Part shown: in pieces, positions 32,544-32,881 of the stretch | Layout: each line of letters begins with the position of its first letter | Numbering within the stretch: the stretch's first letter is position 1 | NCBI GenBank assembly: GCA_964016885.1 | Contig: OZ024762.1 | Span: forward strand, 13,578,001-13,642,000 | Reading direction: 5' to 3' | DNA: 64,000 bases | Source of the DNA: Eledone cirrhosa | Taxonomy: Eukaryota | The notes under the pieces: model-generated | Seen by the model: the letters and a program-made list of their open reading frames with translations, nothing else | Told to the model about the DNA's origin: nothing | Database searches by the model: none | Position numbers and translations under genes: made by a program

Positions 32544-32881
32544 TTTCATTTTGTTTCAATTTATCGTTTTCGGTATGCCTGACCGATTTAACTCACTCAA
32601 TATGCAAATTAGGCTGCTCAGCCGTTAATTTTCATAAGGAAAGTATATACTTTCGAACGTTCAACTATCTGGCAGATGGGTAAACGGTGCTGATGATAGC
32701 TAACAAGCTTGAAACTAGTACATCGTTCCTGTGTCAGTGTTGAACAAAAAGGTGACGTGGTTGCCTTAACACCGTATGGCATAAATTCAGGCTGTTCAGT
32801 TTGTTTACAAACGAACAAAGCGACGTTAGCGCCGCTAAACTGATACGTGCATATATGTATGTGTACCTGTATGCATATGTA

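Follow-up and report, generated by a model that had tools for sequence, protein, structure and literature searches.

A predicted type I hammerhead ribozyme, probably kept by selection, in an abundant non-coding retrozyme family of Eledone cirrhosa

A repeat array and a solo element carry the same motif

Within the window, by which we mean the whole 64-kb stretch of DNA that was analyzed, a 26-mer occurs in 16 exact copies, where 100 shuffles of the window gave none. Fifteen copies belong to an array (16349-22891), six on its minus strand and nine on its plus strand, and the remaining one lies at 32697-32722, in a solo element (Table 1). The array has two head-to-head arms of tandem 422-nt units between stretches of (TA)n. 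All 15 units are identical to one another, no stop-free frame of 150 codons was found in the array, and the hammerheads of the right arm, described below, lie at 19208-19250 and at multiples of 422 nt from there. The solo element is two-armed as well, and its short arm matches 32887-32979 exactly in reverse complement. Its short-type end is marked by the loop of a small hairpin (32974-32989), while a tail hairpin precedes the tail-type end.

Table 1. Coordinates of the features in the window and, in the last row, of two loci elsewhere in the genome
Feature	Position	Strand	Basis or remark
Predicted type I hammerhead, solo element	32684..32726	+	Sequence, Rfam HH9 alignment, cross-family comparison
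Stem I	32684-32689/32721-32726	+	Solo hammerhead
CUGAUGA core	32690-32696	+	Solo hammerhead
Stem II, U·U and 3 pairs	32697-32700/32707-32710	+	Solo hammerhead
Stem II loop, UAACAA	32701-32706	+	Solo hammerhead
GAAA	32711-32714	+	Solo hammerhead
Palindromic stem III, ACUAGU	32714-32719	+	Solo hammerhead
Predicted cut, GUA triplet	after A32720	+	Solo hammerhead
Extended stem I domain: internal loop by stem I, then distal helices	32659..32745	+	Fold z -3.8
Long arm of solo element, about one M-subfamily unit, tail-type end beside (TA)n	32544..33037	+	
Short inverted arm of solo element, 93 nt, short-type end	32451..32543	-	
Long-range helix, 5' strand	32774..32781	+	Pairs with 32992-32999
Putative priming module: small hairpin, long-range helix 3' strand, tail hairpin	32974..33037	+	
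Array left arm, 6.5 identical 422-nt units (A subfamily), short-type outer end	16349..19084	-	
Array right arm, 9 identical 422-nt units, tail-type outer end	19084..22891	+	
Left (TA)n target	15683..16348	.	Read by eye
Right (TA)n target	22892..23798	.	
Very long single arms, two loci	G000:C1:5738326-5752444 and C1:51772498-51791725		

About 60 nt of interrupted (TA)n at 16290-16350 recur at 22892-22955. This apparent long target duplication was read by eye and includes the single G present in each flank; a general test for such duplications gave no information beyond its own control. The window also contains short tandem arrays with periods of 99 nt and 101 nt (30158-30544 and 35010-35278), and hammerhead-like core fragments with long spacers at 9792-9835 and 26677-26716, both on the plus strand. 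These fragments may belong to other repeat families, as similar strings recur at two further loci (L170 and L178).

Architecture and predicted activity of the hammerhead

Positions within the motif are given in hammerhead numbering, in which H17 may not be G. CUGANGA, GAAA, and NUH follow one another in type I order, and the motif reads as a type I hammerhead, one per unit, predicted to give a self-cutting RNA. An Rfam search at the gathering score returned no matches in the window. The solo motif aligned to Hammerhead_HH9 with 18.5 bits (E 0.017), as one of two HH9 alignments on 116-base stretches (the other at 19.2 bits, E 0.0095). MicroRNA matches were discarded as AT-repeat noise.

Two features set the motif apart. 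The G10.1-C11.1 pair is replaced by U·U, as it also is in a related family with 310-nt units, while a sister family with units of 466-469 nt has G-C (both families are described below). By analogy, the U·U should lower the expected activity and leave class membership intact, since it is tolerated in axolotl HHR_Amex2 (PMC7229834). Stem III is a short palindrome, ACUAGU here and ACGCGU in the 310-nt family, like those of animal hammerheads reported to act as dimers (PMC4209133; PMC7229834). In the predicted minimum-energy folds, the core CUG is paired to stem III bases, which would be an inactive form. Two such monomer folds come to -27.0 kcal/mol, and a double hammerhead, when drawn, to -25.6 kcal/mol, nearly the same. 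The stem I extension folds with z-scores of -2.9 and -3.8. The unit RNA as a whole is highly self-paired (z -7.4, reached by 0 of 100 shuffles, with a contribution from AT palindromes), and 71% of its bases are predicted to pair when it is folded as a circle. In two RNA runs chosen by guesswork, coverage was limited to the simple-repeat part. As stem I would pair between units in a double hammerhead, mixed dimers of the subfamilies with U·G (as at 19208-19250) and G·U (as at 32684-32726) in this stem would be expected to contain U·U and G·G mismatches.

Array and monomer compared

The first-pass annotation rested on a comparison of the array with the monomer of the solo element and, as the array units are identical, this was a comparison of 2 sequences. 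It described the 26-mer as invariant between flanks that had diverged, with N7 as the only change in the core. The alignment confirms the last point (C/U at N7). In the near flanks, however, conservation is roughly equal to that of the core, since these sequences make up the long stem I extension. The 26-mer itself, for all its 16 exact copies here, is not invariant family-wide: the third base of the stem II loop is C or U, and 8,828 exact cores have an AAUA loop, a lower bound on the copies that differ in loop 2. The identical run shared by array and monomer is 28 nt long, and a run of at least 26 nt arises in 7.8% of 20,000 permutations at 76.7% identity (gap blocks collapsed). Outside the core, identical runs of 22, 17, 15, and 14 nt are found, the longest of them in the 3' region.

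Stem I was said to change on both strands (ACGUUG/CAGCGU to ACGGUG/CAUCGU) while pairing was kept. Both strands do change and still pair; the change concerns a single pair, however, from a wobble U·G to a wobble G·U, and thus 1 of the 12 pairs of the hammerhead. Among 17 real copies, the hammerhead alone likewise had 1 of 12 pairs changed on both sides, a count reached by 207 of 500 shuffles. Neither the shared run nor this pair is significant, and covariation between the 2 sequences was therefore rejected as proof of selection. Over the whole unit, the same 17 copies had 8 of 97 pairs changed on both sides (25 of 500 shuffles), one of them a private change. The two-sided pairs outside stems I-III include 2 of the long-range helix (32774-32781/32992-32999 in the monomer), in whose 5' strand C-G to U-A and U-A to G·U/A-U changes distinguish subfamilies.

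The family genome-wide

The retrozyme family has 28,412 core-pattern matches in the 3.0-Gb genome (2 for the control), while a motif from the 3' end of the unit has 34,474 (0 for the control). Its units, those of a non-coding jumping repeat, are 420-480 bases long. Among the core matches listed, 97 of 100 keep both stem II strands, though the pattern left these free. A genome-wide DNA search with the monomer gave no matches, which is put down to a blind spot of the search for very common words. Units identical to those of the array lie on many contigs, including at least 9 of the largest; the monomer represents a young subfamily, with 45 identical cores among the loci fetched (overlaps included). 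Pieces of both types also turn up in the contigs of a public run that carries the label of another organism.

From 322 loci (234 groups), we obtained a near-full unit for 132 groups, 118 of which fell into seven clusters of 5 or more; the 14 in small clusters were left out. Most of these loci had been found via core patterns, so that the sample favors an invariant core, and with this bias, 2 of the 31 columns of a 31-nt core vary between subfamilies (N7 and the third loop base), compared with 70 of 328 elsewhere (p 0.058). Inherited changes affect 0 of 16 columns of the core and stem III, compared with 63 of 284 elsewhere (p 0.028). Ahead of the tail, the 3' region varies no more than the core does.

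The variable stem I pair was counted in one fixed background, that of the AAUA-loop cores, as U·G (5,281), A-U (2,156), G·U (1,181), and U·U (210). Copies with U·U have the look of decayed ones: among 26 independent loci, the nearest subfamily was a U·G one for 21, G·U for 4, and A-U for 1. Another possibility, that U·U was an intermediate linking G·U or A-U with U·G and was itself amplified, is not supported, given the 210 exact copies against 8,618 paired ones, the mostly U·G backgrounds, often beside U·G sister units, and the lack of shared private changes that would define a U·U clade. Among 771 core-like matches in the loci, a targeted sample that includes duplicates, G·G never occurred and A·G occurred once, at a junction.

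Inherited and private changes

Private changes were counted in 197 units of 156 groups, with one exact-core copy per locus group dropped. The rate of private substitutions was 2.2% in the core (70 of 3146 cells), 3.4% in stem I, and 3.0% elsewhere (1192 of 40220), and the slight deficit in the core (p 0.018) may be a leftover of sampling bias. Loci chosen by the tail motif had either this core or private damage to it. In addition, 3,126 contigs of a public run (X3), which were not chosen by a core pattern and come from what is possibly the source of the assembly, had variants at a frequency of 5% or more within 32684-32726 only at the stem I pair, N7, and the loop base. By these counts, inserted copies decay almost freely, and no amplified lineage with a changed core is seen.

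Covariation across related families

The sister family, with a pattern count of 9,513 (all 100 matches listed were of this type), can be aligned to the array unit over 331 columns at 63% (E 6e-22) and folds into matching helices. For the 310-nt family, the best alignment is that at the hammerhead (pairwise search, E 5e-6 and 8e-4); common descent with the retrozyme family is likely for it as well, though less secure. The 310-nt family was found without a pairing filter, whereas a filter demanding pairing gave the first sight of the sister family.

In a gapless alignment of fifteen copies, five from each of the three families, C3, U4, G5, A6, G8, A9, G12, A13, A14, A15.1, C15.2, G16.2, and U16.1 are invariant. 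All unpaired catalytic bases are fixed, while C, U, or A is found at N7 and A, U, or C, but never G, at H17. Both sides have changed in 10 of 15 pairs (5 of 6 in stem I and 3 of 4 in stem II), yet 95.6% of cells are paired, compared with 73.7% in shuffled alignments (reached in 0 of 500) and 37-52% in slid controls. The only unpaired cells are those of the U·U at 10.1-11.1, and the RNAalifold covariation term is -4.74 kcal/mol. The number of two-sided pairs as such does not exceed that of shuffles in this alignment (156 of 500), and three families amount to few independent events. Between the 310-nt family and the array, 9 pairs differ on both sides and all 9 still pair; the center of the stem III palindrome has gone from UA to GC with the palindrome retained.

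The first-pass annotation had placed conservation and covariation at the ribozyme. This is true only of the comparison with the 310-nt family, in which the ribozyme is the conservation peak. Against the sister family, the best-conserved 43-nt window is the 3' region, with 36 matches as opposed to 28 for the ribozyme, and both there and within the family the putative 3' priming region is as conserved as the ribozyme or more so. Across the whole unit of the array family and the sister family, 25 of 91 predicted pairs have changed in both partners. Stems I and II account for 6 of these and the distal extension for 4; the other 15 lie in the rest of the unit, and about four of them are due to a monomer deletion or to a row that runs out into its flank. 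Judged by these alignments, covariation spans the whole unit and is not centered on the ribozyme. In stems I and II, covariation is supported across the three families, while within the family the hammerhead offers a single covarying pair.

Two further families were noted. One has the core UUGAUAA, a U3-A8 swap (L038:542-608, L119:1704-1770, L266:664-730, L252:477-542); its stem II has G-C as the basal pair, its stem III is longer and nearly palindromic, and some of its parts are similar to the 310-nt family. The other is abundant and combines CUGAUGA, a U·U-based stem II, and GAAAC without a clear type I stem I (L323-L347, L077, L088, L108, L169, L172, L176).

Insertion architecture and search for a partner

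Young insertions of the family are head-to-head arrays in (TA)n, with outer ends at two fixed sites about 59 nt apart, namely the loop of the small hairpin (short end) and the position after the tail hairpin (tail end). One short and one tail end were found in 69 of 71 two-armed elements (p 1e-18 against 50%), a set for which both ends were detected and which includes arrays picked as young and one duplicated element. Both elements of the window follow this rule, and the sister family has matching ends with a tail of about 70 nt. The inner junctions, in contrast to these fixed ends, are scattered over the unit, mostly with 0-4 nt of overlap or a few extra bases. Because of this scatter, L1-style twin priming, where the first cDNA would end on reaching the second primer, is not supported. 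By analogy with known elements, the two-armed (TA)n insertions read as a Penelope-like footprint.

Evidence on whether one template served both arms is mixed: in L085, 18 of 19 segments share a 4-nt insertion, while L088 and L097 have arm-specific variants. In another two-armed insertion (L135:4416-5600), the 422-nt type gives way to the M type near the center, which suggests template switching between subfamily RNAs. Very long single arms were also observed, one of about 30 units of the 466-nt family and one of more than 30 units of an older retrozyme subfamily.

The genome contains reverse transcriptase (RT) and GIY-YIG frames of 844-1096 codons without a stop and with a CxxxxCxxC linker. 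Long frames with this cysteine linker lie at L167:4309-7122, L168:2488-5019, and L169:1775-5062; the L167 family has copies that are about 97% alike, with (TA)n at the end, and two loci (L172 and L177) hold such frames head to head. Among 50 GIY-YIG loci (150 scored of 10,597 candidates), none was an autonomous partner sharing sequence with the unit, and the units that lie beside RT and GIY-YIG frames look like separate insertions.

Selection on the hammerhead and on the whole RNA

Taken together, we consider it probable that the motif is the type I hammerhead of a non-coding retrozyme family of about 28,000 cores, whose catalytic bases and pairing are kept in copying lineages and decay in inserted copies, most likely since self-cleavage of tandem transcripts is needed for spread. 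As related families change most pairs in step while keeping the catalytic letters, selection likely preserves both a working ribozyme and the fold of the whole RNA. The earlier conclusion that selection acts on RNA structure and catalysis thus appears to hold for a real, selected hammerhead, albeit on other grounds: the evidence first offered for it was too thin and too narrowly placed, and its support comes from the three families, the contrast of inherited with private changes, and the X3 contigs.

Under the proposed mechanism, tandem transcripts would form double hammerheads through the palindromic stem III, and cutting after GUA would release unit-length RNA, linear or circular. The whole unit would then adopt a conserved branched structure bound by a Penelope-like reverse transcriptase/GIY-YIG protein, priming would start from both ends of a (TA)n cut, at the two fixed sites that lie about 59 nt from each other, and the resulting pair of cDNAs would be joined in head-to-head orientation. 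The target of selection would be the source RNA lineage and not each genomic copy.

Three other explanations were weighed. The hammerhead could be kept as a folded, protein-binding part of the RNA, with cleavage weak or dispensable and selection on shape rather than catalysis. Covariation throughout the unit, the U·U in place of the usual G10.1-C11.1 pair, and the inactive minimum-energy folds would all fit such a role, as would the anole Penelope-like element, whose hammerhead needs protein and is dispensable for insertion in vitro, where mutants had no effect (PMC11167929). We nonetheless find it unlikely. The unpaired catalytic bases show no variation across the three families, whereas N7 and H17 do vary and stay among the permitted bases, and the UUGAUAA family has swapped the C3-G8 tertiary pair, the role of which is described in PMC11167929, for U3-A8. 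Moreover, an axolotl hammerhead with the same U·U base is reported to cleave, best as a dimer (PMC7229834).

That the conservation reflects recent common ancestry and sampling by core pattern, with paired changes linked by descent only, is a fair description of the two-sequence comparison; clonal subfamilies link any two diagnostic sites, and the sister family first came to light through a pairing filter. As an account of the larger data it is very improbable. In the 310-nt family, to which no such filter applied, the 9 of 9 two-sided changes that remain paired would arise with a probability of about 3e-4 even at a generous 0.4 chance each, and the samples taken by tail motif and the public contigs contain no alternative core. 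We give least credence to the arrays being satellite DNA grown from solo Penelope-like terminal repeats by unequal crossover or fold-back, with no repeatedly copied RNA template, an origin put forward in the discussion of 10.64898/2026.07.22.740005. Later duplication has left signs, in alternating unit variants at one locus (L123) and the duplication of a whole element at another (L128). Growth at the DNA level would not, however, keep RNA pairs across families, and it is at odds with identical units on at least 9 of the largest contigs, with outer ends that pair one of each fixed site in nearly every two-armed element, and with the scattered central junctions.

Beyond the self-cleaving retrozyme favored above, we tentatively suggest that the unit could be a complete minimal Penelope cargo RNA, made up of a dimer-only hammerhead and a branched scaffold that includes the covarying long-range helix and carries two start sites for reverse transcription. 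Each end of the (TA)n cut would be served by one of these sites, with a dimeric Penelope-like protein acting on both, which would give the nearly strict one-short-one-tail rule, and many-unit arms would be copied from a circle. We rate this idea as slightly less likely than not; if it is true, the genome's subfamilies are a natural mutational scan of the priming signal.

Hammerheads are known from animal retrozymes and Penelope-like elements, yet cleavage was dispensable for spreading in the one in vitro system (PMC11167929), and most of the frog dimers assayed stayed uncut (10.64898/2026.07.22.740005). Catalytic bases that are fixed in copying lineages and decay once inserted are evolutionary evidence that cleavage matters in vivo. 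In this family, a 422-nt RNA is available whose helices and two end sites are mapped and which has natural compensatory variants; it is a ready substrate for studying how Penelope-like proteins make inverted insertions that are tailed at one end.

Comparison with known systems

In the main texts available to us, we came across neither two-armed retrozyme arrays with fixed ends nor covariation between subfamilies of such elements, and the part of PMC13282606 available makes no mention of ribozymes. Hammerhead_HH9 of Rfam (RF02275) shares with the motif its type I order, a 6-bp stem I, a 4-position stem II with a 6-nt loop, and an internal loop by stem I. The motif differs in having a stem III without a loop and U·U at 10.1-11.1, and its two alignments score 18.5 and 19.2 bits against a gathering score of 52.

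In its sequence features, the family matches the animal non-LTR retrozymes (PMC7229834; 10.64898/2026.07.22.740005), with which it shares non-coding tandem units of a few hundred bases, a GC content below 50%, one type I hammerhead per unit, thousands of copies, and a genome that also holds Penelope-like elements. Its units are a little longer, however, at 422-480 nt compared with the 170-400 nt given in PMC7229834, and head-to-head two-armed arrays with two fixed ends did not turn up in the portions of these two sources consulted. The axolotl hammerheads come closest in their weak points: HHR_Amex1 has a weak stem III with a palindromic loop and HHR_Amex2 the U·U at the base of stem II, and both are reported to cleave best as dimers (PMC7229834). 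Here, both weak features occur in one motif, together with a GUA triplet and long distal stem I helices. Dimers are not always active, as 8 of 9 Xenopus retrozyme dimers are reported to show no cleavage in vitro (10.64898/2026.07.22.740005).

Penelope-like elements with an endonuclease are similar in their inverted, 5'-truncated copies, their tail, often at one end only, and their microsatellite targets (PMC8557442; PMC3846280). They also share a hammerhead in the terminal repeat and two internal reverse-transcription start sites, to which the tail was mapped in vitro (PMC11167929). The present family differs from the elements so described in having no reading frame, in arms that can both hold many units, in a tail of about 59 nt (about 70 nt in the sister family) instead of 30-40 nt, and in a one-short-one-tail rule that is nearly strict.
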